Positions 4,319-64,000 of a stretch of 64,000 bases of DNA are shown here, in pieces. Below the pieces are notes generated by a model, which saw nothing but the letters and a program-made list of their open reading frames with translations, was not told where the DNA came from and ran no database searches. A program made the translations under genes and the position numbers. This DNA is from a bacterium (GTDB lineage Bacteria > Patescibacteriota > Patescibacteriia > Patescibacteriales > GWE2-39-37): assembly GCA_037146995.1 (NCBI GenBank), contig JBAWWA010000002.1, forward strand, positions 1,955 through 65,954, in the 5' to 3' direction. The stretch's first letter is position 1, and the number at the start of each line of letters is the position of its first letter.

Positions 4319-5794
4319 TTATATTTTAGCTTTAGCTAAATGAAAATTTGTAACTTTTTGATACTGATGACCGACTTGTAATAATTTATTCTCATCAAAC
4401 CTCGAACCAATTAACTGGAAAGCAAGAGGCAATTGTTTGCCATCAATCTCTGAAAAACCGCATGGTACTGACATAGCTGGTAGCCCGGCCAATGATGGGC
4501 TAGTAACGAAGATGTCCTCCAAATACATCTTGAGCGGGTCATTGGCCTGCTCACCAATCTTAAAGGCTGGATGAGGCGAAACTGGCGTCAACAACAAATC
4601 AACTTCCCTAAGTACCTGATCCAATTCTTCTTTAATTATAGTCCTAACTCTCTGGGCTTGCAAATAATAAGCATCAAAATAGCCCGCAGACAAAGCATAA
4701 GTACCAAGCATAATTCTTCGCTTTGCCTCTTCACCAAAACCCCGCCCGCGAGTCCTGTTATAAACGTCCTGCAAATTCTTTTCCTCGAGGTAAGTAGAAA
4801 AGCCATAACGGATACCGTCATGACGAGCTAGGTTTGAACTTAACTCTGATGGCGTCAAGATATAATAAACTGGCACAGCGTATTTAGTATGCGACAATTT
4901 AACTGACACAAATTCTGCGCCCAATTGCTTTAACTGTTCGATTGCCCGATTAACCGCTTGCGTTACCGACTCAGCAGTACCATCCGTAAAATATTCCTCA
5001 GGTAAACCGATTTTAAGTCCCTTAATACTATTACCCAGATTTTCGTTATAATTAACAATTTTTTCATCAACTGTTGTGGCATCAAATTTATCCAAGCCAG
5101 AAATGGCTTTCTGTACCGTCGCCACATCTTCAACCGTTTTGCATAAGGCACCTGGCACATCAGTCGAGCTAGTCATTGAGACCAAACCAAATCTTGAACT
5201 GCGACCATAAGTCGGTTTTAAACCAACCACACCACAAAAAGCGGCTGGACAGCGAATAGAGCCACCCGTATCGGTACCCAAGGCAAACAAACACATATCG
5301 GCAGCTACGGCGGCAGCCGAGCCACCTGATGAACCACCAGGGACACGCGCTAAATCCCAGGGATTATGAGTTACTCCAAAGGCGCTATTTTCTGTGGAGG
5401 CGCCATGAGCAAATTCATCAAGATTAACTTTGCCAAGCAGCACCGCCCCCGCCTCGCGCAATTTTTTAACGACAGTGGCGTCATAAGGTGCAATATAATT
5501 TTCAAGCATTTTTGAACTAGCCGTAGTTTTTATGCCACTGGTCAAAATATTATCCTTGCACAAATATGGAATACCTAGCAGTTCTCCCTTTTCGCCTTGA
5601 GCACGGCGCTCATCTGCTCTAACCGCTTCGGTCAAAGCCTCAGTTTCACACACCGTCAAGCAAGCGTGAATCATGGGATCAACCTCTTTTATCCGCAACA
5701 AACAAGCCTGAGTCAATTCAAGCGAAGTTATTTCGCCTTGTTCCAATTTTAATCGCGCCTCTCTTATTGTTAATTCGTTTAATTTCATACTCAA
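4319..5794 (-). CDS. gatA: Glu-tRNA(Gln)/Asp-tRNA(Asn) amidotransferase subunit A
   Basis: Amidase signature GGSSGGSAAAVA with Ser-cisSer-Lys triad context. 491 aa. Immediately downstream of gatC. Confidence 0.9.
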   Translation of the reverse strand: MSMKLNELTIREARLKLEQGEITSLELTQACLLRIKEVDPMIHACLTVCETEALTEAVRADERRAQGEKGELLGIPYLCKDNILTSGIKTTASSKMLENYIAPYDATVVKKLREAGAVLLGKVNLDEFAHGASTENSAFGVTHNPWDLARVPGGSSGGSAAAVAADMCLFALGTDTGGSIRCPAAFCGVVGLKPTYGRSSRFGLVSMTSSTDVPGALCKTVEDVATVQKAISGLDKFDATTVDEKIVNYNENLGNSIKGLKIGLPEEYFTDGTAESVTQAVNRAIEQLKQLGAEFVSVKLSHTKYAVPVYYILTPSELSSNLARHDGIRYGFSTYLEEKNLQDVYNRTRGRGFGEEAKRRIMLGTYALSAGYFDAYYLQAQRVRTIIKEELDQVLREVDLLLTPVSPHPAFKIGEQANDPLKMYLEDIFVTSPSLAGLPAMSVPCGFSEIDGKQLPLAFQLIGSRFDENKLLQVGHQYQKVTNFHLAKAKI

Positions 5795-6213: not shown

Positions 6214-9142
<2,929 letters not shown>

Positions 9143-9179: not shown

Positions 9180-11327
9180 TTAGCTAACTTTAAAATAGTC
9201 ATCCTGGGGAAATAATTTTGACCCAGCCTTATGTAAACTCTTAACTTTCAGTTTATCACCTTTGGTCTTGTATACCTCGATTTCGAGCTTAAGCCAATCA
9301 ACGTCCATGGGATCTAACCTTTTACCGGTTTTTATATACTCCAAAGCCATATCCAGCTGACCAAGCATAATAGATGTGTCAGCGGATTTCTTATAGACCA
9401 GCTTTTCCTCGCGTATAACCATGGTTCGATGCTCTAGATTCATCATTTTGTCAGTCGTATTTGGATAGAGCTTTATGGCATTATTATAGTGTATTATGGC
9501 CCTTGAGAAATCACCCACCCGATAATTTAGATCACCCCAAGCTAGCTCGACTAAGGCATAACCGCCAGTATTTTTTTTAAGCTGACTAAATTTATCATTT
9601 ATGAGCAAAAATAGCTGGCTCTGGCCGCTAGGTAAGCCTGGTGGCAACAATCTGGTCAAAACCATCAAGGTGCTTAATTTTGCCCTAAAGGTCTGCGGCT
9701 CGTTATCAGTATTTAATATTTTTTTTAACAGTAAATCAAAAGCATTTTTATCAATCACGCCCGAATCGAGATAGCTTAAGGTAGTAGCTAATAACTCAGC
9801 CCGGTAAAAACCCTCAAATTGGTTGGAAGGTGCTGTGACAGTAATTTTATTTGCCCAAACAAGATAGTCGTTTTGGTTGCGAGCCAGGTTAAGCTGACGA
9901 AAATAATGACTTGCCATGATGCCTTGAATATAAATAAAAGAGAGATAACCGAGGAATGGCAATATTATTATTAAATAATAACTCCGCTGCCCAAGAGTAA
10001 TGACCTGGCGCTCACTAACCAAGGCTAAAATTATTCCCAAAGTCAAAGCCAAATAACTGGCCGTTACGATAGTAATAAATGAAAACAATAAACTAACCAA
10101 AAAACCCAAGAGAGCAAGTAACAACAATTTAACCACTTTTTGCTCCTGCAAATCAAGGCGAGTTTTATATGCTTGCTTAATAACTCTTAGAACAAACCAG
10201 GCCAATATTAAAGCTACACTAAAAGTCACCAAGCCTGACTCAAAAATAAAATCGAGAAAAATATTATGCAGTCTGTCAGGATTGGCATTTATGGCCTCGA
10301 CAATTGCCCAACTGCCATTATAATAGCGATACAAATAAAGCTCTTGCGTGTCCTGACCATACCCGAGTAAGGGTTTTTTGGAAATTAAGTCTAAGCCGCT
10401 CCGGTAAAGCCCAAACCTATACGTCCCCTGATTTAAGCTAAAAGTGCTTAAAACACGATTACCAACCGAGCTATAATTAATAAAAATATTTTCACTGGCC
10501 GTATTTTTGGTTATTAAAAAACCAGCAGTCATGGCTAGCAACAAAAATGTCAACAAACAGACTGAATAAAGTATCCATTTCTTTGCCTTAAATTGCCTCA
10601 AATAAAAAATAAAACTGACCAATACGGCTGCAAATAAACCAAGCCAACCGCTACGACTTAAAGTAAAAACAAGCGTTAGCAACTGTAACAACCACGAGAT
10701 TAAATAAAGAAACTTTAATTTGCTCTTAGTTACTAAATACCCCCACCAACTAAAAGCTAGACTAAAGAGTAAATATGCTGCCAAATAATTTGGCTGACCT
10801 AAAGTGCTGGCCGCTCGCAGACGCACCGGGTCAAATATTTCATACTCATAAAAATCTAGACCGGCCACCTGAAGTAAACCATAGATACTAACCAAACTAG
10901 CCGCAGCAGTCAGGGCAAGCAAAAAATATCTTAATTTTTCTTGAATTAATGGCCACCAAGCAAATACTAAATATAATAATAACCACAGCTCGAGCTCTAA
11001 AAAAAAGCCAAAACCTCGCATGGCGGAACCAAAAAAGGCGACGCTGCGAAATTCAGAATTGCATGCGCTCAAAAATCTTAGTGTAAAATATAATGCCCAA
11101 AGGTACAGCAACTTTTTATTTTGCGGCAAGACAAGTTCTTTGGTTAAAAAACTTTTCACTACAAACAATAGTGCTAGCCAAAAAATAAATACGCTAAAGA
11201 CGAAAATTTTAAATAATTCAAAAGAGTGCCAAATTTGCGAATTAAAAACCAAGGGCAAAGCAAAAAAACCAGCGCTTAAGCTAATAATTATTAAATGATT
11301 AATTTTTGAAATTATTTTTTCCTGCAT
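9180..11327 (-). CDS. O-antigen-ligase (Wzy_C) family membrane protein with C-terminal TPR repeats; candidate pilin O-glycosyltransferase
   Basis: About 12 TM segments. LSRSGWLGL motif typical of Wzy_C/O-antigen ligase/PglL/TfpO. C-terminal TPR-like YNNAIKLYP region. Gene immediately downstream of the pilin gene. Confidence 0.7.
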   Translation of the reverse strand: MQEKIISKINHLIIISLSAGFFALPLVFNSQIWHSFELFKIFVFSVFIFWLALLFVVKSFLTKELVLPQNKKLLYLWALYFTLRFLSACNSEFRSVAFFGSAMRGFGFFLELELWLLLYLVFAWWPLIQEKLRYFLLALTAAASLVSIYGLLQVAGLDFYEYEIFDPVRLRAASTLGQPNYLAAYLLFSLAFSWWGYLVTKSKLKFLYLISWLLQLLTLVFTLSRSGWLGLFAAVLVSFIFYLRQFKAKKWILYSVCLLTFLLLAMTAGFLITKNTASENIFINYSSVGNRVLSTFSLNQGTYRFGLYRSGLDLISKKPLLGYGQDTQELYLYRYYNGSWAIVEAINANPDRLHNIFLDFIFESGLVTFSVALILAWFVLRVIKQAYKTRLDLQEQKVVKLLLLALLGFLVSLLFSFITIVTASYLALTLGIILALVSERQVITLGQRSYYLIIILPFLGYLSFIYIQGIMASHYFRQLNLARNQNDYLVWANKITVTAPSNQFEGFYRAELLATTLSYLDSGVIDKNAFDLLLKKILNTDNEPQTFRAKLSTLMVLTRLLPPGLPSGQSQLFLLINDKFSQLKKNTGGYALVELAWGDLNYRVGDFSRAIIHYNNAIKLYPNTTDKMMNLEHRTMVIREEKLVYKKSADTSIMLGQLDMALEYIKTGKRLDPMDVDWLKLEIEVYKTKGDKLKVKSLHKAGSKLFPQDDYFKVS

Positions 11328-56122: not shown

Positions 56123-56171
56123 TTGCATTTTAGGCAAAAGCCACGGCCGTGTCAAGTAAACTAAAATTAAA

Positions 56172-56374: not shown

Positions 56375-57181
56375 CTAGCGCACCTCGATAGTTTTATTTA
56401 GGGCCATGGCCATTTCCTTCATGCAACGCAGGGCCATGTCAAATTGCTCCTCTGGTGTCAGATTCTTGGCCATGTTTACGGCTTTGTGATGTTCTAAGTC
56501 ATGTTGACGCCGCTTGTAGAGAGCGCACAACTGCTTGTTTTCATCCACAACACTTTTATTCAGGTCATTGTCTGCCTCGGCAATATCCCTCGGCACATGC
56601 GGCAGCCTGTCAGCTGTTTCTTGGTTATTGACCACCCAGCCATCAGGCACGAGGCGATGATTGTCAATCCTGACATTTGCCACAACGGCGTTAATGCCGA
56701 TATGACAATAATCACCAACGGTGGCTTTTTTCACCACCGCACCATGATCAAGCATACAATTACGCCCAATCGTGGAGTGATGAACAATGACATTAAAGCC
56801 GATAAAACATTTTTTACCCAGATAAGCCGGACCATGAATGGTTGCCTTGTGAGCAACTGAACAATGTTTGCCGACCCAGACGCAATACTTTTTGCCGTCG
56901 TCTCCGTCGACAAAAAGGCCTCCATGCGCATGAACCAAGGTGTGATCTTGAAAGTTGACACCCTCAGAAATTCTCACCCCACCGTAATTTTCATCGTTAA
57001 GATAGACATCTTTTACCTCGTCGATGCGAATAACCGTGTCGGGCAAAATTGTCACTCGAGGCCCGATACTGATTTGACCAATGATAATCGCACTTTCACT
57101 TACAATGGCGCTCTTATCAATGGTCGGGTTGCCAAAAAAAGAATCGTTGAAACGAAACCTACCCGGTTTTCCTGCATCCAT
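56375..57181 (-). CDS. left-handed beta-helix (hexapeptide repeat) protein, gamma-carbonic-anhydrase-like, with C-terminal alpha-helical extension
   Basis: Hexapeptide repeats throughout. HAHGG and H-x4-HG (SVAHKATIHG) match gamma-CA zinc-ligand spacing. About 80-aa charged C-terminal tail. Confidence 0.6.
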   Translation of the reverse strand: MDAGKPGRFRFNDSFFGNPTIDKSAIVSESAIIIGQISIGPRVTILPDTVIRIDEVKDVYLNDENYGGVRISEGVNFQDHTLVHAHGGLFVDGDDGKKYCVWVGKHCSVAHKATIHGPAYLGKKCFIGFNVIVHHSTIGRNCMLDHGAVVKKATVGDYCHIGINAVVANVRIDNHRLVPDGWVVNNQETADRLPHVPRDIAEADNDLNKSVVDENKQLCALYKRRQHDLEHHKAVNMAKNLTPEEQFDMALRCMKEMAMALNKTIEVR

Positions 57182-57417
57182 GTTGCTCTCCTTTTTTACT
57201 GTAATTTATTACCGTTCAAATGTGAACGTCCTACTTTTTGTAAAGATCTCCTTTTGTAACAATTTATGATTATTGCATAAATACACATTTGTGTCAATAT
57301 TAGCCACTTTTAAACAATTTAGGTTCAAAAATATCCTAATTTATACAATATTCTTCAAGATACAACTATTATATGCTACTCCCTGTAATAATTACGTCAA
57401 GTGTATGGCGCAATAAC

Positions 57418-57446
57418 TTGACATTAATATATATTTGTGCTATATT
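57418..57446 (+). promoter_or_regulatory. near-consensus sigma70 promoter for small peptide gene
   Basis: TTGACA, 17-nt spacer, TATATT. 35 nt upstream of ATG 57481. Confidence 0.55.
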
Positions 57447-57480
57447 ATAAATATAAAAAATTATCCAAAAGGAGGGGCAA

Positions 57481-57564
57481 ATGAGTGGATATTTAATGTC
57501 CGTTGGCTTAGTCATACTTGTTATTGTTCTGTGGAACCTAATGGGCTATATCTTGCCCGAATAA
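57481..57564 (+). CDS. 27-aa hydrophobic single-TM peptide (MSGYLMSVGLVILVIVLWNLMGYILPE)
   Basis: Strong RBS AAAGGAGGGG 5 nt upstream. Promoter and terminator are both well formed. Not in the ORF track (below the size cut-off). Confidence 0.5.
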   Translation: MSGYLMSVGLVILVIVLWNLMGYILPE

Positions 57565-57589
57565 TAACTAACAAAAAACCTTTTACCCT

Positions 57590-57616
57590 AGCCTCAATTC
57601 GTTGAGGCTTTTTTCT
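57590..57616 (+). terminator. rho-independent terminator after the small peptide gene
   Basis: AGCCTCAA-ttcg-TTGAGGCT then TTTTTC. Confidence 0.6.
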
Positions 57617-57632
57617 TTTAAAAAAATAAAAA

Positions 57633-57660
57633 AGAATCGATTTTAGTCGATTCTTTTTTC
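57633..57660. terminator. bidirectional terminator (also ends the complex-I-like operon on the minus strand)
   Basis: AAGAATCGA-ttttag-TCGATTCTT flanked by A-run and T-run. Lies 11 nt past the stop of the NuoCD-like gene. Confidence 0.6.
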
Positions 57661-57670
57661 TAAATATATT

Positions 57671-59224
57671 TTACATGTCAGTACCGGAATAACTCAGGTT
57701 AAGCGATTTGTTGCACAGCGGAAAGTCTGGTACGATATTGCCCGGACCGATGATGCCAAAGGTGGCCCAATTACAAAATGATGGATCACGCGGAAAACAA
57801 CGCTCAATCTGGCCGTTTCTTATTACTACAGCACAGAGAACTTCACCCCGCCATGACTCGGTTGCGCCAATAGCGTAACCATCTCTCGGTGTGCAATTAA
57901 CGCTATACTCACCGGTCGGCATTTGATCAATTAAAATATTAATGAGTCGCACTGTTTCGTTTAATTCATCTAGACGCGCCGTAAATCGCGCATGAACATC
58001 ACCAGCCGTTTTTACAACCACTTTAACCGGAAATTTCGCGTAAGCAGCGTGCGGAAAATCGCGCCGAACATCACGATCAACCCCGGAACTTCTAGCTGGC
58101 AATCCCAGTGCGCCAAAGGCCTTGGCCGCTTCCAATGGCAAAATTCCAGTTGTCTGCAAACGATCCATAAAACCTTCTGAGGACAAAGCAGTCGTTGTTA
58201 TTTCCTTGATCTCGGCAAAAGCCTCATTAACAACTAGCTTGATACGAGCCAACTCGGAGGTGGTAAAGCTTTTAGAAACACCCCCTGGCAAAATCAAACC
58301 TCGCCAAAATCGATTACCAAGCACTTCCTCTGACAAACGCATTAGACGTTCTTTGACTCGAAAACCATTGGCCGCAATAAAACTAAAGCCTGTGCCCATA
58401 CCGCCAATATTAGCAATGTCGTGAACATGCATCGTCAAGCGTTCAAGTTCAGCAACTAGCGTTCTTAAAATCAAGGCCAGTTCAGGCACATTAACGTTGG
58501 CAAGAATCTCTACGGCCTGACAATAGGCCAAAGCATTGGCAGCCGCCATATCACCAGACAAGCGCTCAATAAATTTCAAACCCTCAACCGGAGTTTTGCC
58601 TTCTAAAAGCTTCTCGACGCCTTTGTGAGTAAAGAAAAGCTTGCCCTCTAAAGTAATAATACGCTCGCCTGCCACATTAAATCTAAAATGACCAGGCTCA
58701 ATAATACCCGCATGAATCGGTCCGACTGGAATTTCAAAAATCCCCTCGCCTTTGACATGGCCCATCGGATATGGCTCATTGGCATGTTCAAGTTTTTTAT
58801 TCCAAATAAAATCTTTTCTTAATGGGTGAGTAGCATTAGGAATATTTTCATGATTAACCAAACGACGCAAATCTGGATGGCCATCCGGCACCACACCGAA
58901 CATGTCATGACTATAGCGTTCATACCAATGTGCGGCCATAATCGTCGCAGTAATCGACGGATAATGAGGGTGACTAGCACTCACCTCCGCACGCAGTTCG
59001 AGCCGCTCATGACTCTCGTCTAGACTAAATACTGCATGAACTGTGTAGCATTTTTTTTCAGCCCGTTCATCGGTCACAAACATTAACGATAATGGCAGGT
59101 CATATTCATTCACCAAAGCAGTCGCTATTTTAGCTATATCATCACTGTTAACCGTAACACAATATATGTTGGCCAGGAGTTCTGCCTTAAGTTGTAATTT
59201 TGACAAAATTTCTAAAGCTTTCAT
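57671..59224 (-). CDS. fused NuoC/NuoD-like (HycE-like) large-subunit homologue lacking all [NiFe]-binding cysteines
   Basis: N-terminal 30-kDa-subunit motif HWYERYSHDMFGVVPDGHPDLRRL. Large-subunit motifs GPIHAGIIEPGHFRF. The L1 site reads ERLSGDMAAANALAY (canonical R-x-C-G-x-C). The C-terminal L2 site reads NLSYSGTDM (canonical D-P-C-x-x-C-x-x-H/R). Confidence 0.8.
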   Translation of the reverse strand: MKALEILSKLQLKAELLANIYCVTVNSDDIAKIATALVNEYDLPLSLMFVTDERAEKKCYTVHAVFSLDESHERLELRAEVSASHPHYPSITATIMAAHWYERYSHDMFGVVPDGHPDLRRLVNHENIPNATHPLRKDFIWNKKLEHANEPYPMGHVKGEGIFEIPVGPIHAGIIEPGHFRFNVAGERIITLEGKLFFTHKGVEKLLEGKTPVEGLKFIERLSGDMAAANALAYCQAVEILANVNVPELALILRTLVAELERLTMHVHDIANIGGMGTGFSFIAANGFRVKERLMRLSEEVLGNRFWRGLILPGGVSKSFTTSELARIKLVVNEAFAEIKEITTTALSSEGFMDRLQTTGILPLEAAKAFGALGLPARSSGVDRDVRRDFPHAAYAKFPVKVVVKTAGDVHARFTARLDELNETVRLINILIDQMPTGEYSVNCTPRDGYAIGATESWRGEVLCAVVIRNGQIERCFPRDPSFCNWATFGIIGPGNIVPDFPLCNKSLNLSYSGTDM

Positions 59225-59231
59225 ATATTTT

Positions 59232-60692
59232 TTAACTTAAATTTTTTATAATATCAACCACGAAGCCAGTGCCACTTGACGATGTAAACCAAACACCCAA
59301 CAAGATAACTGCAATTATATGAACCAACATGACACTGTGAGTAATATTCCAGTGCTCTCGTGTCTCATTTAAATCAGTAGTATTTGCTTTTTCCAAAATC
59401 ATACCAATTGTCGTTCTTAGCATGCCAAAGGCAATAACACCAAGGGCAATGAAAACCGCGATTGACAGATACAAATGAGCTTTGATCATTGCCGAAAAGA
59501 GCGTAAATTCACTAACAAATAATATTGACGGTGGCATTGCCACAATAAAAATTATCCCGATTAAAAACAAAGAGCTCGTATAGGGCGCATACTTTAACAA
59601 GCCGCCAACTTTAGTTGTGTCAGTTGTTTTATAGCGCAACAGTATTTCACCAGCTCCAAAAAATAATCCAGATTTTATGATTGAATGACCAATCATATGG
59701 ATAACTGCAGCCATTACGCCGATAGGCGGCAAGGCCAAGCCTAGGGCAATCAAGCCCATGTGCTCAATACTTGAATAGGCGAGCATCCTTTTGTAATTCC
59801 TTTGCACGAGCAACATAAAGGCTGGTAATACGACCGACAAGATACCGAAAAATAAAAAGAATTTACCAGTCCATTCACTCCCGCCTATGGCCTGATTAGC
59901 AATCATTTGAAAACGAATAATCGCATACAAAGCCACGTTTAACAATATGCCAGAAAACAAGGCCGAGATTGGCGATGGCGCCTTGCTGTGGGCATCTGGT
60001 AGCCACGTATGGATTGGCGCGAAACCGACTTTAGCACCAAAACCCACAAAGATAAAAACAAAAGCCCATTTTACAAGCTCCGGCGACAAGGCGCTAGTAT
60101 TCTTCAATAAATCACTGATCAAAAAACTAACTGATTGATCTGCCCCAGCCTGCGATGTATAACCGAGTAAAAGTATGCCAATCAAACCTAAAGTAATACC
60201 AGTTGAGCAAATAATAATATATTTCCAAGCAGCCTCAAGTGATGAGCGCTTGCGATAAAGACCAACCAAGAAGGTCGAAGATAAAGTTGTTGCTTCTAGA
60301 GCCAACCACATAATCAAAGTATTATTAGTGACAACGACTAAAAACATTGCCATCACGAACAAAGGTAGCAAAGTGAAATATAATTTTAGATCATTGATTT
60401 TCACCTCTCCATCCTTAAATTCATGACCAATATAGCGCACACTAACAATAGTGGCACTTAAAGATAATAAAGCGATTAGACTAGCAATCAAGGCTCCGAA
60501 TCTATCCAAATAAAACCACTCAGTAATTAAAACCTCTGTGCCAAAAAATTGTGGTGAGACGAATAACCAAATTGTCAAAGCAGAAGCGATGGATACAGCA
60601 CCAGCCGACAAACGAATGATTTTTTCGTTTTTTTGCACCACAGCAAGAATGACTGCCAAACTAAAAAGTCCAAAGATAAATAAAATATTCAT
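59232..60692 (-). CDS. NuoN/NuoM/MrpD-family antiporter-like membrane subunit
   Basis: 14 TM helices. Hallmark ...GFAPIHTWLPDAHSKAPSPISAL. Confidence 0.85.
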   Translation of the reverse strand: MNILFIFGLFSLAVILAVVQKNEKIIRLSAGAVSIASALTIWLFVSPQFFGTEVLITEWFYLDRFGALIASLIALLSLSATIVSVRYIGHEFKDGEVKINDLKLYFTLLPLFVMAMFLVVVTNNTLIMWLALEATTLSSTFLVGLYRKRSSLEAAWKYIIICSTGITLGLIGILLLGYTSQAGADQSVSFLISDLLKNTSALSPELVKWAFVFIFVGFGAKVGFAPIHTWLPDAHSKAPSPISALFSGILLNVALYAIIRFQMIANQAIGGSEWTGKFFLFFGILSVVLPAFMLLVQRNYKRMLAYSSIEHMGLIALGLALPPIGVMAAVIHMIGHSIIKSGLFFGAGEILLRYKTTDTTKVGGLLKYAPYTSSLFLIGIIFIVAMPPSILFVSEFTLFSAMIKAHLYLSIAVFIALGVIAFGMLRTTIGMILEKANTTDLNETREHWNITHSVMLVHIIAVILLGVWFTSSSGTGFVVDIIKNLS

Positions 60693-60693
60693 A

Positions 60694-62289
60694 TTATTCG
60701 GTTAAATTTCTCAATTCCTCGGTATCCACTGAACCGTAAAAATACTTAATTCGTGAACCAAGAAGCGAAAGAATTAAAGCTGTTAAAGCGGTGACGGTAA
60801 AAACACCCATCTCAATTATTAACGGCAATGACTTGACTGTCACAAGCGTAAATATGGCGATACCATTTTCAACAACAAGCAGACCGATAATTTGAGAAAA
60901 AACATTTCTATGGACAATCATAGTGGCAAGACCCAAAACTAGCAGCCCAACTGAAGCAAACAATAAACTACTCCACTCAACCAAGGCAAAAATTGGCGTC
61001 TTTTGAACAATAAAAAATACAAAGACTAAAAGTAGCGCTGCCAAAAGATAGCTTGAAGCCGGTCTCAAGAAAGACTGTAAATTCGCCGTATGTCGCTGTT
61101 GTTTTTCCATTATCTTAATAACGTATGGCACTAACAGGACTTTTACGGCGATCGTTACAACAGCGAAAATCAATAAATGAGTCTGCTCTTCTGGGGCCAT
61201 TAAGGCAAGACTATAGGCAATGCCTGCAATCATTAATGATGAGGCTGCATAATATCTAAGTATTGATTTCAATCTTAACCGACCGAAGAGTAACACCACA
61301 AAGAAAACCGACATAGCAGCAAAGACAGTATAATATTTTATATCAGGTCCGGTAAGTTTGACATATACAGCCACCATCATGCCAAAAAAAGCCGTAAAAA
61401 AAGCCAAGGATAAATATTCAGGCATCCTATAAAACCTCATTTTAACTATGGTCATTTCTAACCAACCCAGCAAGACGGCAACCATAGAAACCTTAAGGAT
61501 TGCCAAAAGTATAGCCAAAATACCACCACCGACACTAAGACTAAAAATCGTTACAGGCGGAAAAACAAAATTCGCAATTAAAATTGAAAAGGCTGCTAAT
61601 TTTATTGCCGAAGCGTATTCTAGCAAGGCCAAATAGCGACCAGAATATTCAAGAATCATGGCCTCATGAACCATAGTTAACTCAAGATGCGTTGCCGGAT
61701 TATCAACAGGATAACGTGCATTTTCAGCCAGTGAGACCAAGACAAAGGCAATCATTAAAATTATCAAATGCGGGGCACTAAAAATTAAAGACTGCGCAAA
61801 CATACCATCAAGCTGAAAAGAGCCTGTCACAAAAGCTAAAGCACCAAATATCAAAATAACAGTTGGCTCAATCAACGAGGCCAGAGTCATTTCACGCGAT
61901 GAGCCCATGCCCCCAAAAGCGCTAGCGGAATCTAGACCGCCCAAAACCAAAAAGATCGAGCCAACAATCATAAAGGCTGCTACCACCAAAAAATCACTAG
62001 CGAAAGCCAAGGCACCACCACTAAAAACTAAGGGCAATATAAAAGCCAAGGCTATTGTCGAGGCTAGTACCACAAAAGGTACGGCCCTAAAAACCCAAGA
62101 AGTGGATTTTGAGATAACCATTTCTTTCTTGAGTAAAGTCAAGATCGTATAATAGGGCAAAAATGGCGAAGCTCCGCGTCTGCCCTGCAATCGAGCCTTG
62201 GTAAACCTAACCAGACCGACAGAAAATGGTGCTACCAACAATATGGTCAGGCCTTGCAATATTGTAGCTAAAATTTGAAATGAGTTCAT
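60694..62289 (-). CDS. NuoH/HycD-like membrane subunit fused to a C-terminal ~200-aa polytopic extension (HyfE/NuoK-like?)
   Basis: N-terminal LLVAPFSVGLVRFTKARLQGRRGASPFLPYYTIL matches the NuoH/HycD signature. Total 531 aa versus about 310-330 for NuoH. C-terminal third has about 6 extra TM helices. Confidence 0.7.
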   Translation of the reverse strand: MNSFQILATILQGLTILLVAPFSVGLVRFTKARLQGRRGASPFLPYYTILTLLKKEMVISKSTSWVFRAVPFVVLASTIALAFILPLVFSGGALAFASDFLVVAAFMIVGSIFLVLGGLDSASAFGGMGSSREMTLASLIEPTVILIFGALAFVTGSFQLDGMFAQSLIFSAPHLIILMIAFVLVSLAENARYPVDNPATHLELTMVHEAMILEYSGRYLALLEYASAIKLAAFSILIANFVFPPVTIFSLSVGGGILAILLAILKVSMVAVLLGWLEMTIVKMRFYRMPEYLSLAFFTAFFGMMVAVYVKLTGPDIKYYTVFAAMSVFFVVLLFGRLRLKSILRYYAASSLMIAGIAYSLALMAPEEQTHLLIFAVVTIAVKVLLVPYVIKIMEKQQRHTANLQSFLRPASSYLLAALLLVFVFFIVQKTPIFALVEWSSLLFASVGLLVLGLATMIVHRNVFSQIIGLLVVENGIAIFTLVTVKSLPLIIEMGVFTVTALTALILSLLGSRIKYFYGSVDTEELRNLTE

Positions 62290-64000
62290 AAAGCGATACT
62301 TAAAGCAACAATTAAGGTTGCCAATAACAAAAGTAAATAATACTGAATCCTGCCGCTTTGGATTAATTTAACTCTAAGCGATAAAAAATTCATAAATTTC
62401 TCAATGGGCAGATACACGCTACTCTTCCAGGCAGAACTAATTAAAAGCGAAAATGAATAATTACGAATCCAGGGATTAGTGACCACAACTGGCTCGCTAG
62501 TAATTAATTTGTTTCTGCCAATTAAATTGAGGAAAAAAAATCTGATCGGCGCCGAAAAAGCGGCTGCTGTATATTCCATAGTTGAATTTATCGGCTGTCC
62601 GCAATCCCAGGTATGATATGAACGCTCTTTTTTATTTAGCGCAAAGAAGTAATTCAAAAGATAGGCAAATAGTAAAAAACCTAAAACGACGGACAATAGT
62701 TGCATAGATGATATAGAGCCAATGGCATTTTCCGTAATCAATTCAGAACTATTTAATACATTGGAAATAATGCTAATAAAATAATTTGCAAAAATACCAA
62801 TACTTAAAACACCAAGTGCTAATCCGGCAATCGGCCAAACTAAAAGTCCATCACCTAACTCAGACTTTATTTCATGCTCACGATACCTTGGCAAGCCCAG
62901 CATAGAAATAGCAAAAATCTTGATCATCGCAAAAACAGCTAAACCCCCGATCAAACCGATTACTGATAAAATTAGAACCACAATTGGCAATAGCATGCCA
63001 CCGGCTTGAGACATTAAACTAATAGCCACATGAATCAAGCCCCATTCGCCATAAAAAGTACCGAACGGCGGAATTGGTAACGAACCCATAATAACCAGTA
63101 AAAAGAAAAAAGAAAATAAAGGTAAAGACTTCGCAAAGCCACCCATAAGCTCTAGACTGCGAGAATGGACACGACTAATGACTAAACCACTCGAAAGGAA
63201 TAGGGCCGTCTTAAAGAAGGCATGACTCAAACTATGAATGATAGCAAAAACAATCAAGGGAATAAAATATCTCATTAAATTTGAATGAGCATAGTTTGCT
63301 GTAATATAAATTGCCAAGCCAATAACAGAAAATATAATTCCCATATTTTCAATACTGCTATAGGCAAAAGCCTTTTTCATGTCAGTTTCAATTGCCGCAT
63401 AAAGTGCGCCGACAACACCGGACACAAGCCCAAGAATGATCACCAAGGTGCCAGCCCAGGTTGGCATGTAGGCAAAATTCAAGACCACCATCAAGAAACC
63501 ATAAATCGCCACTTTTAACATCAAGCCAGACATAAGAGCGGAAATATTGCTTGGAGCCTGTGGATGTGCTTCTGGCAACCAAACATGGAGTGGAACAAGT
63601 CCAGCCTTTGAACCAAATCCAAATAAAAACAAACAAAAGGCAGCAGTAGCCAAAGTTGGCGTCAACTGCTGTGTCACTTCTTGAATCATTGATAAATCAA
63701 AAAACAAGGAGCCATTTCCCAATATTAAAAAACCACCTAATATCGCCGAAGCTCCGAGGTGGGTCATAATGAAATACAAGAATGCTGCGTTGAAAGACTC
63801 TTTAGTCTTGTCTGACAATACCAAAAAGAAAGAACTTAGAGACATTACCTCCCAAAAAAACAAGAAAGTAAATGAGTTGTTGGCAAGCAATACTGCCTGC
63901 ATACCAAAAACAAACAATCCCATTAAAAATTGGGTTGTGTATTTGTTATAAGTTTTTTGATACAGATCAAGATATCTAACACTATAAACGCCAACCAAAG
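62286..64000 (-). CDS. NuoL/MrpA/HycC-family antiporter-like subunit (N-terminus lies beyond window end)
   Basis: Hallmark GLVPLHVWLPEAHPQAPSNISAL. ATGA overlap with the next gene. ORF runs to the window edge. Confidence 0.8.
   Translation of the reverse strand, partial: LVGVYSVRYLDLYQKTYNKYTTQFLMGLFVFGMQAVLLANNSFTFLFFWEVMSLSSFFLVLSDKTKESFNAAFLYFIMTHLGASAILGGFLILGNGSLFFDLSMIQEVTQQLTPTLATAAFCLFLFGFGSKAGLVPLHVWLPEAHPQAPSNISALMSGLMLKVAIYGFLMVVLNFAYMPTWAGTLVIILGLVSGVVGALYAAIETDMKKAFAYSSIENMGIIFSVIGLAIYITANYAHSNLMRYFIPLIVFAIIHSLSHAFFKTALFLSSGLVISRVHSRSLELMGGFAKSLPLFSFFFLLVIMGSLPIPPFGTFYGEWGLIHVAISLMSQAGGMLLPIVVLILSVIGLIGGLAVFAMIKIFAISMLGLPRYREHEIKSELGDGLLVWPIAGLALGVLSIGIFANYFISIISNVLNSSELITENAIGSISSMQLLSVVLGFLLFAYLLNYFFALNKKERSYHTWDCGQPINSTMEYTAAAFSAPIRFFFLNLIGRNKLITSEPVVVTNPWIRNYSFSLLISSAWKSSVYLPIEKFMNFLSLRVKLIQSGRIQYYLLLLLATLIVALSIAL

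Follow-up and report, generated by a model that had tools for sequence, protein, structure and literature searches.

The stretch of DNA analysed here, 64,000 nt long and referred to below as the window, comes from a metagenome-assembled genome (MAG) of the Patescibacteria, or Candidate Phyla Radiation (CPR) bacteria. Between the last gene of a complex-I-like operon and a gene for a carbonic anhydrase (CA)-like protein it holds a short intergenic site that an earlier note had singled out as a gene for a small hydrophobic peptide. We find that this site reads as a real, self-contained and unannotated gene, predicted to encode a single-helix membrane peptide of 27 amino acids (aa) and conserved in three lineages of Patescibacteria. 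The interpretation that we favour, with a probability of about 0.6, is that the product would be a lineage-restricted, independently transcribed, single-pass micro-protein that binds a larger membrane protein and modulates it.

The promoter, ribosome-binding site, 27-codon open reading frame (ORF) and two terminators that the earlier note had described were all confirmed (Table 1). Direct reading together with a consensus scan places the -35 element TTGACA at 57418-57423 and the -10 element TATATT at 57441-57446 of the plus strand, separated by a spacer of 17 nt whose last three bases are TGC, the TG of an extended -10 lying at 57438-57439. The ORF begins with ATG at 57481 and closes with TAA at 57562-57564. 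Given that the second terminator sits 12 nt past the stop codon of the convergent NuoCD-like gene, it would also end the NuoCD-like operon. The predicted fold of the transcript has a z-score of -3.9, which is owed to the two terminator hairpins.

Table 1. Features of the small gene and of its surroundings, in window coordinates
Feature	Position	Strand	Basis or remark
Promoter of the small gene (sigma-70, extended -10)	57418..57446	+	consensus score 11/12 with TG
Shine-Dalgarno sequence AAAAGGAGGGG	57467-57477	+	GGAGG core 5 nt before ATG
27-codon ORF plus TAA stop, encoding MSGYLMSVGLVILVIVLWNLMGYILPE	57481..57564	+	translation; one predicted transmembrane helix
Terminator 1, AGCCTCAA-TTCG-TTGAGGCT plus T-run, the small gene's own	57590..57619	+ only	8-bp stem at 57590-57609
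Terminator 2, bidirectional, backing up terminator 1	57628..57659	both	13-bp hairpin, T-runs on each strand
Large subunit (Ehr-type), a NuoC/NuoD-like fusion and the final gene of the complex-I-like operon	57671-59224	-	identical to MEI8360674.1
HyfF/NuoM-like subunit	59232-60692	-	profile similarity
NuoH+NuoK/HyfE-like fusion	60694-62289	-	profile similarity
HyfB-like antiporter subunit	62286-63998	-	profile similarity
Conserved element (CE/P1), divergent promoter-like TTGACG-16-TAGCAT	57373..57400	-	upstream boundary of the inserted cassette
Second promoter of the CA gene, TTGACA-17-AATAAT with TG	57297..57269	-	near-consensus; serves the gamma-CA-like gene
CA-leader palindrome CGTTCAaatgTGAACG, CGTTCA-N4-TGAACG	57213-57228	-	conserved
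Gamma-CA-like gene (CcmM/Cam-like left-handed beta-helix)	56375-57181	-	best NCBIfam similarity to CcmM and Cam-type CA, below cut-off
53-aa ORF (MEAIMSAVAMLMLLGGVWCYLEFF...), N-terminal transmembrane helix	56212-56373	-	starts 1 nt after the gamma-CA stop

The earlier note had held near-consensus signals to be rare in the window, and this proved wrong. With a consensus score out of 12, the scan returned 16 promoter sites scoring at least 11, as against 2.2 +/- 1.6 in Markov shuffles of the window that served as the control. When these were compared with the coordinates of ORFs and tRNAs, at least 10 of the 16, the small gene's included, stood just upstream of the start of a gene or tRNA; examples ahead of operon or tRNA starts are those at 1745, 14760 and 50095 on the plus strand and at 56155, 23185, 19447 and 14766 on the minus strand. 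The 16 also include the minus-strand promoter of the gamma-CA-like gene (57297..57269), 120 nt away. Near-consensus sigma-70 promoters are in routine use in this CPR genome, and the signals of the small gene are real and beyond chance, yet they follow the genome's normal operon-start grammar and are no outlier. From these signals the gene is probably well expressed.

The encoded peptide is hydrophobic or aromatic at 19 of its 27 residues by direct count, and its sole charge is E27. The ORF has a GC content of 38%, against a window average of 39%, and stands between intergenic flanks of 27% and 25%; its in-frame codon usage gives a log-likelihood 4.5 above the other frames.

We compared 94 loci around homologues of the NuoCD-like protein, 80 of them from GTDB species representatives and 14 from the Logan, JGI and ENA contigs that encode its closest proteins. 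The cassette of promoter, ORF and terminators was sought by tblastn with the peptide and by inspection of every region downstream of NuoCD, its presence or absence being judged within +/-4-6 kb around the operon. The search of related genomes for a small ORF at the same position, which the earlier note had proposed, succeeded in two further lineages only, those of loci L001 (CAYUCS010000002) and L088 (JGI 3300045051); locus L112, from a strain 99% identical to that of L001, carries an identical ORF. In the window and in both further lineages the cassette is inserted at one and the same place, with the NuoCD stop codon on one side and CE on the other, and runs convergent to NuoCD, and its promoter, Shine-Dalgarno (SD) sequence and tandem terminators are all kept. 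The promoter, ACTTGACA-N14-TGCTATATTA, has the same letters in the three; an SD sequence precedes the start codon in L001 (ggagg) and L088 (aaggag) as well, though the 5' untranslated region (UTR) differs in sequence and length; and both loci have an equivalent of terminator 1 (AGCCCC...GGGGCT followed by a T-run) and a second hairpin at the place of terminator 2.

A scan of metagenomes with the shared promoter pattern returned 52 loci, among which only L112 was relevant. The others were unrelated consensus promoters, and the motif is therefore generic. In several metagenome contigs (marine TARA, Ga0209777) the pattern ACTTGACA-N14-TGCTATATTAWWAAT occurred twice in near-identical form, at a distance of 180-220 bp, each copy preceding a short gene (L111, L121, L135). 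These pairs resemble early-promoter modules such as recur in mobile or viral elements, and they have no bearing on the small gene.

Conservation of the ORF was examined as identity per codon position over the 27 ungapped codons of three sequences, those of the window, L001 and L088. Between the window and L001 the identities were 13, 19 and 7 of 27 at codon positions 1, 2 and 3 (chi-square p = 0.005), and between L001 and L088 they were 15, 22 and 8; sites invariant in all three numbered 9, 16 and 3 of 27. Given that third positions are at chance identity, neutral sites are saturated, and the frame nevertheless runs through all 27 codons without a gap. The hydropathy profiles of the three peptides correlate at r = 0.76-0.94. 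L001 has a GC content of 53% against the window's 39%, and second positions and hydropathy are kept nonetheless.

At the level of the RNA, a 15-nt identity around the start codon (GCAAATGAGTGGATA) is shared by the window and L001 and is lost in L088, which argues against a constraint on the RNA sequence itself. No family of Rfam 15 reached its gathering threshold (the best match scored 29 bits, against a gathering threshold of 54, and all matches fell on the terminator hairpins), and Rfam scans of the related loci and of the site within the whole window gave nothing. No structure common to the three transcripts was found besides the terminators. Because second positions, hydropathy and the SD sequence are kept and no RNA structure beyond the terminators is shared, we conclude that selection acts on the peptide, the signature being that of a protein-coding gene and not of an RNA. 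The earlier note had taken the site for a small gene encoding a peptide with a single transmembrane (TM) helix, and had named a promoter conserved without its ORF as the pattern that would tell against this; at the homologous loci it is the ORF itself, with its codon-position signature, that is conserved along with the promoter.

Within the three peptides M1, G3, Y4, G9 and V14 are invariant, position 18 is always aromatic (W or Y), and position 19, inside the helix, is always polar (N or Q); the shared core can be written M-[SQ]-G-Y-x4-G-x4-V-x3-[WY]-[NQ]. The L001 form, MSGYFTTIGAALFVFGVYQFQGLFLKEY, has 28 residues, or 36 with an N-terminal extension of 8 (MIWHSIQQ); the L088 form, MQGYLTSVGAAIFVLFVWNFQPILMEKCSPILDTIANKATKALSRI, has 46 and ends in a basic, K/R-rich C-terminal tail of 19. 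The ends of the peptide are, from these alignments, plastic among homologues.

Genes as short as 27 codons lie below the length limits of gene callers, and the 27-aa form of the window is not called anywhere and is absent from a collection of 15 billion proteins. A collection of 5.8 billion protein clusters contains just the 36-aa form of L001 and the 46-aa form of L088, both without a name, and a search with the L088 form and with a profile of the three sequences returned only these same two proteins. With a 31-aa in-frame extension as the query, phmmer found no match in 1.84 billion representative proteins. Scans of all three peptides against Pfam, NCBIfam, PADLOC and PHROGs at E<=10 gave no match beyond chance, the PHROGs output consisting of weak chance matches that differed from peptide to peptide. 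The chains of the Protein Data Bank (PDB) include KdpF, CydX, AcrZ and the small subunits of NDH-1. When these chains were searched at E<=10 with the single peptide and with two- and three-sequence profiles, nothing was returned except one irrelevant match to a ribosomal protein. Neither a paralogue in the window nor an origin as a fragment of a neighbouring subunit was found, and an hhalign comparison with the family of 53-aa proteins encoded after the CA genes (see below) gave a probability of 47% at 11% identity. The peptide thus reads as a new and very narrowly distributed small-protein family, of a kind that is already known (the stand-alone membrane micro-protein) and of no described family.

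How such a product might work can be sketched from these features. The sigma-70 promoter with its extended -10 would give a transcript of about 165 nt, starting at approximately 57453 and ending at terminator 1, and an accessible SD sequence would allow translation of the 27-residue peptide, which would amount to essentially one TM helix. In the L088 homologue the C-terminal tail is rich in K and R, which by the positive-inside rule points to a likely N-out/C-in topology with the C-terminus in the cytoplasm. An intramembrane polar residue combined with a small-residue face is the type of feature that mediates helix-helix packing, and here the intramembrane Asn/Gln beside the conserved aromatic residue, together with the face formed by G3, S/T7 and G9, might provide the contact by which the helix packs on a larger membrane protein and modulates it, as AcrZ, MgtS and MgrB do.

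The likeness to the pairs AcrZ-AcrB, MgtS-MgtA and MgrB-PhoQ, and to Escherichia coli orphans such as YohP (27 aa), extends to a promoter and terminator of its own, an intergenic site and a length below 50 aa; the members of this group are likewise known for a single TM helix without signal-peptide cleavage or a soluble domain, and for a narrow phylogenetic range. The peptide differs from them in that no sequence relationship exists and in that its host belongs to the Patescibacteria, in which no characterised membrane micro-protein is known to us, no literature search aimed at this having been made.

Several observations weigh against this interpretation. About 90 further loci, the nearest relatives of the window among them, have the Ehr-like operon and no cassette. 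The peptide evolves fast, L001 and L088 sharing 44% peptide identity against 86.5% identity of their NuoCD proteins, a pattern compatible with a constraint on hydrophobicity only, and also with a toxin or with a gene of marginal use. Between the window and L088 the identities were 12, 18 and 13 at codon positions 1, 2 and 3, a periodicity that is not significant on its own, and the statistics are thin because there are only three divergent members, effectively two deep lineages. The conserved position, finally, may only mirror the conserved synteny of the whole NuoCD-CA-GroES-GroEL region.

The cassette-free nearest relatives are L077 and L081-L087, with NuoCD identities of 70-72%; L089-L094 lack the cassette as well. 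In L077, L083, L084 and L086 CE directly abuts the NuoCD stop and every part of the cassette is missing, the promoter as well, and L085 and L089-L094 have neither CE nor cassette. In L087 about 150 nt with hairpins, but without a homologous ORF, lie between CE and the NuoCD stop (5558-5700). With its TATAAT, its two hairpins and an 11-codon ORF (MSKSNYYTYKI), this stretch could be what is left of a decayed cassette. In a neighbour-joining tree of NuoCD, which has deep branches and is only indicative, the window, L077 and L081-L087 share a clade with L001, which is basal within it; this placement suggests that the cassette may be ancestral in the clade and has been lost repeatedly.

The alternative that survives best, unlikely as we consider it, is that the peptide serves the adjacent complex-I-like (Ehr-type)/CA membrane machine as a dedicated accessory subunit, much as KdpF, CydX or NdhP/NdhQ serve theirs, and it was this role that the earlier note preferred. 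Small single-TM subunits are indeed typical of such complexes, and the gene stands between the last gene of the complex and the CA gene in all three lineages, its place unchanged even where the downstream CA gene has switched class, from gamma-type in the window to weakly CsoSCA/beta-like in L001 and L088. Against this, the gene is read from the opposite strand under a promoter of its own, a bidirectional terminator separates it from the complex genes, and it is neither co-transcribed nor translationally coupled with them, so that stoichiometric co-expression is not built in. No profile or PDB-chain similarity to any known small subunit was found, and the 53-aa TM ORF that is coupled to the CA gene is a better candidate for an anchor. 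Given also that some 90 loci have an intact operon without the peptide, the preference for an accessory subunit is not borne out, and a core subunit of the neighbouring complex can be rejected.

The individual members of this comparison fare no better. KdpF (PF09604 / TIGR02115) and CydX (the YbgT/YccB family) resemble the peptide in size (27-37 aa) and in having one TM helix, but they are encoded in operons, whereas the small gene is monocistronic, set between two terminators and a divergent promoter and not co-transcribed with the flanking complex. KdpF gave no Pfam, NCBIfam or PDB-chain match at E<=10, no kdp gene adjoins, and the site is not the head of a kdpFABC operon; the ...GYILPE end of the window's peptide loosely resembles the C-terminus of KdpF, a lead that had no profile support and was dropped. 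For CydX, the small subunit of cytochrome bd, there was likewise no profile or PDB match and no cyd gene adjoins. NdhP and NdhQ of cyanobacterial NDH-1, including the CO2-hydrating NDH-1MS, offer a parallel in context, a tiny TM peptide beside a complex-I-type module that is genomically paired with a CA-like protein; the differences are that chains of solved structures show no similarity and that the peptide of the window is dispensable across relatives with the same operon.

If the product is, as we favour, a stand-alone micro-protein that modulates a larger membrane protein, the adjacent Ehr-like complex with its CA is the leading candidate for a single partner, one in which the peptide would be optional and not a stoichiometric subunit. 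A specific form of this idea, which we put forward as speculative and judge rather doubtful, is a lineage-specific regulatory micro-subunit that docks on the antiporter-like subunits of a redox-dead Ehr-type module recurrently paired with CAs, and so tunes a putative ion-coupled conversion of CO2 and bicarbonate in ultrasmall episymbiotic bacteria. A looser, optional modulation of the Ehr-like/CA module would perhaps add a small further probability to that of a dedicated subunit.

Less probable than an accessory subunit is a type I toxin-like or otherwise membrane-perturbing hydrophobic peptide riding on a small, patchily distributed selfish cassette, which we regard as improbable. In length, hydrophobicity, stand-alone intergenic cassette and patchy distribution the gene resembles TisB, IbsC, ShoB, ZorO and DinQ: a hydrophobic peptide of 27-46 aa is encoded in a self-contained unit of promoter, ORF and terminator, is patchy among close relatives, and changes its sequence fast while keeping hydrophobicity alone. 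In each of the three transcripts a partial pairing of the SD sequence is predicted, its partners differing from one to the next, so that no sequestering structure appears to be conserved. The antisense or divergent RNA partner of such toxins, for which the earlier note had advised looking, was sought by promoter scan and duplex prediction and none was found: a consensus scan detected no opposite-strand promoter within or downstream of the ORF (57480-57670), and duplex energies between the divergent transcript and the mRNA, a purely computational measure, did not surpass those of shuffled controls, whether for the window, for L001 or for L088. The reading as a type I toxin is thus unsupported. 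The short 5' UTR, strong SD sequence and near-consensus promoter would, moreover, make for an unrepressed toxin that is hard to tolerate, the peptide of the window is without the basic C-terminal tail common in such toxins, and the window contains neither flanking repeats nor duplicate copies of the cassette, and PADLOC gave no match.

That the cassette is instead a non-coding small RNA, or mere promoter and terminators insulating two operons around a fortuitous ORF, is highly improbable: the empty search of 1.84 billion representatives, the promoter and terminators being the best-conserved DNA, and the commonness of open 27-codon frames in the window would fit it, but second positions 59-81% identical beside third positions at chance are the reverse of an RNA-level constraint, frame, start and SD sequence have persisted in three lineages although neutral sites are saturated, and neither an Rfam match nor a conserved structure apart from the terminators was found.

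Taken alone, the peptide adds a modest result, an orphan family of small proteins that is new, and the existence of such a gene will not surprise a specialist; what counts is that a gene of CPR genomes without any annotation proves to be real and conserved. In the Patescibacteria, whose genomes are tiny and few of whose membrane functions have been characterised, a conserved micro-protein that is predicted to be strongly expressed makes a concrete and cheap target. Its practical value is mainly as a marker of a more interesting neighbourhood, in which an Ehr-type operon is repeatedly followed by CAs of different classes.

In that neighbourhood the gamma-CA-like gene is followed by those for GroES and GroEL. 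[NiFe]-hydrogenase large subunits bind nickel through the motifs RxCGxC and DPCxxC. By direct reading, the large subunit of the window has ...RLSGDMAAANA... and ...DPSFCNW... at these sites and is thus without the nickel-ligand cysteines, which assigns it to the Ehr type. Its NuoCD-like relatives come almost entirely from Patescibacteria MAGs (Moranbacteria, Falkowbacteria, Uhrbacteria and Parcubacteria), the best besides the window having 72% identity. Among 68 genes downstream of the NuoCD-like gene, 10 match Pro_CA_2, 5 are gamma-CA-like, 4 match Pro_CA and 3 match CsoSCA_cat; a gamma-type CA follows the operon in the window, L006, L011, L020 and L035. The Ehr-like operon is, then, recurrently paired with CAs of different classes in Patescibacteria. 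Given that CAs have replaced one another non-orthologously at a fixed position, this suggests a functional coupling between operon and CA, possibly an ion-coupled conversion of CO2 and bicarbonate. The Ehr type of CPR bacteria has been described as monophyletic and without metal-binding cysteines (Jaffe et al. 2020, PMC7304191), and Ehr-like genes themselves are known from that work; the pairing with a CA was not found in the passages of it that were read.

The 53-aa ORF has its SD sequence, gaggtg, inside the 3' end of the CA gene, an arrangement of translational coupling, and is followed by a terminator. Similar ORFs of 35-52 aa stand after the CA genes of L083 (6870-7010), L084 (5346-5495), L087 (6856-7014), L001 (~9219-9356) and L086 (~6863-6970). 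The product is probably a small membrane partner or anchor that is co-translated with the CA, and judged by its position and coupling it would fit the idea of an accessory subunit better than the 27-aa peptide does.

CE is conserved in L001 (~7885-7935), L077, L083 (~5560-5640), L084, L086, L087 and L088. It has the layout of a GGTGGAAAAC-type stretch, then CTTGAC, 16 nt and TAGCAT, TAATAT or TATTAT, and then AAGAGTTGTG... with a hairpin and T-run, the hairpin being degenerate in the window. CE has no Rfam match; it reads as a sigma-70 promoter with a terminator-like hairpin straight after it, and may be an overlapping terminator and promoter or specify a tiny RNA. The leader of the CA gene has two conserved tandem promoters with a hairpin and T-run between them, degenerate in the window. 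The CA promoter at 57269-57297 and the palindrome that follows are kept upstream of CA genes of different class in L001, L083, L086, L087 and L088, and the palindrome might serve as an operator or form a hairpin in the leader.

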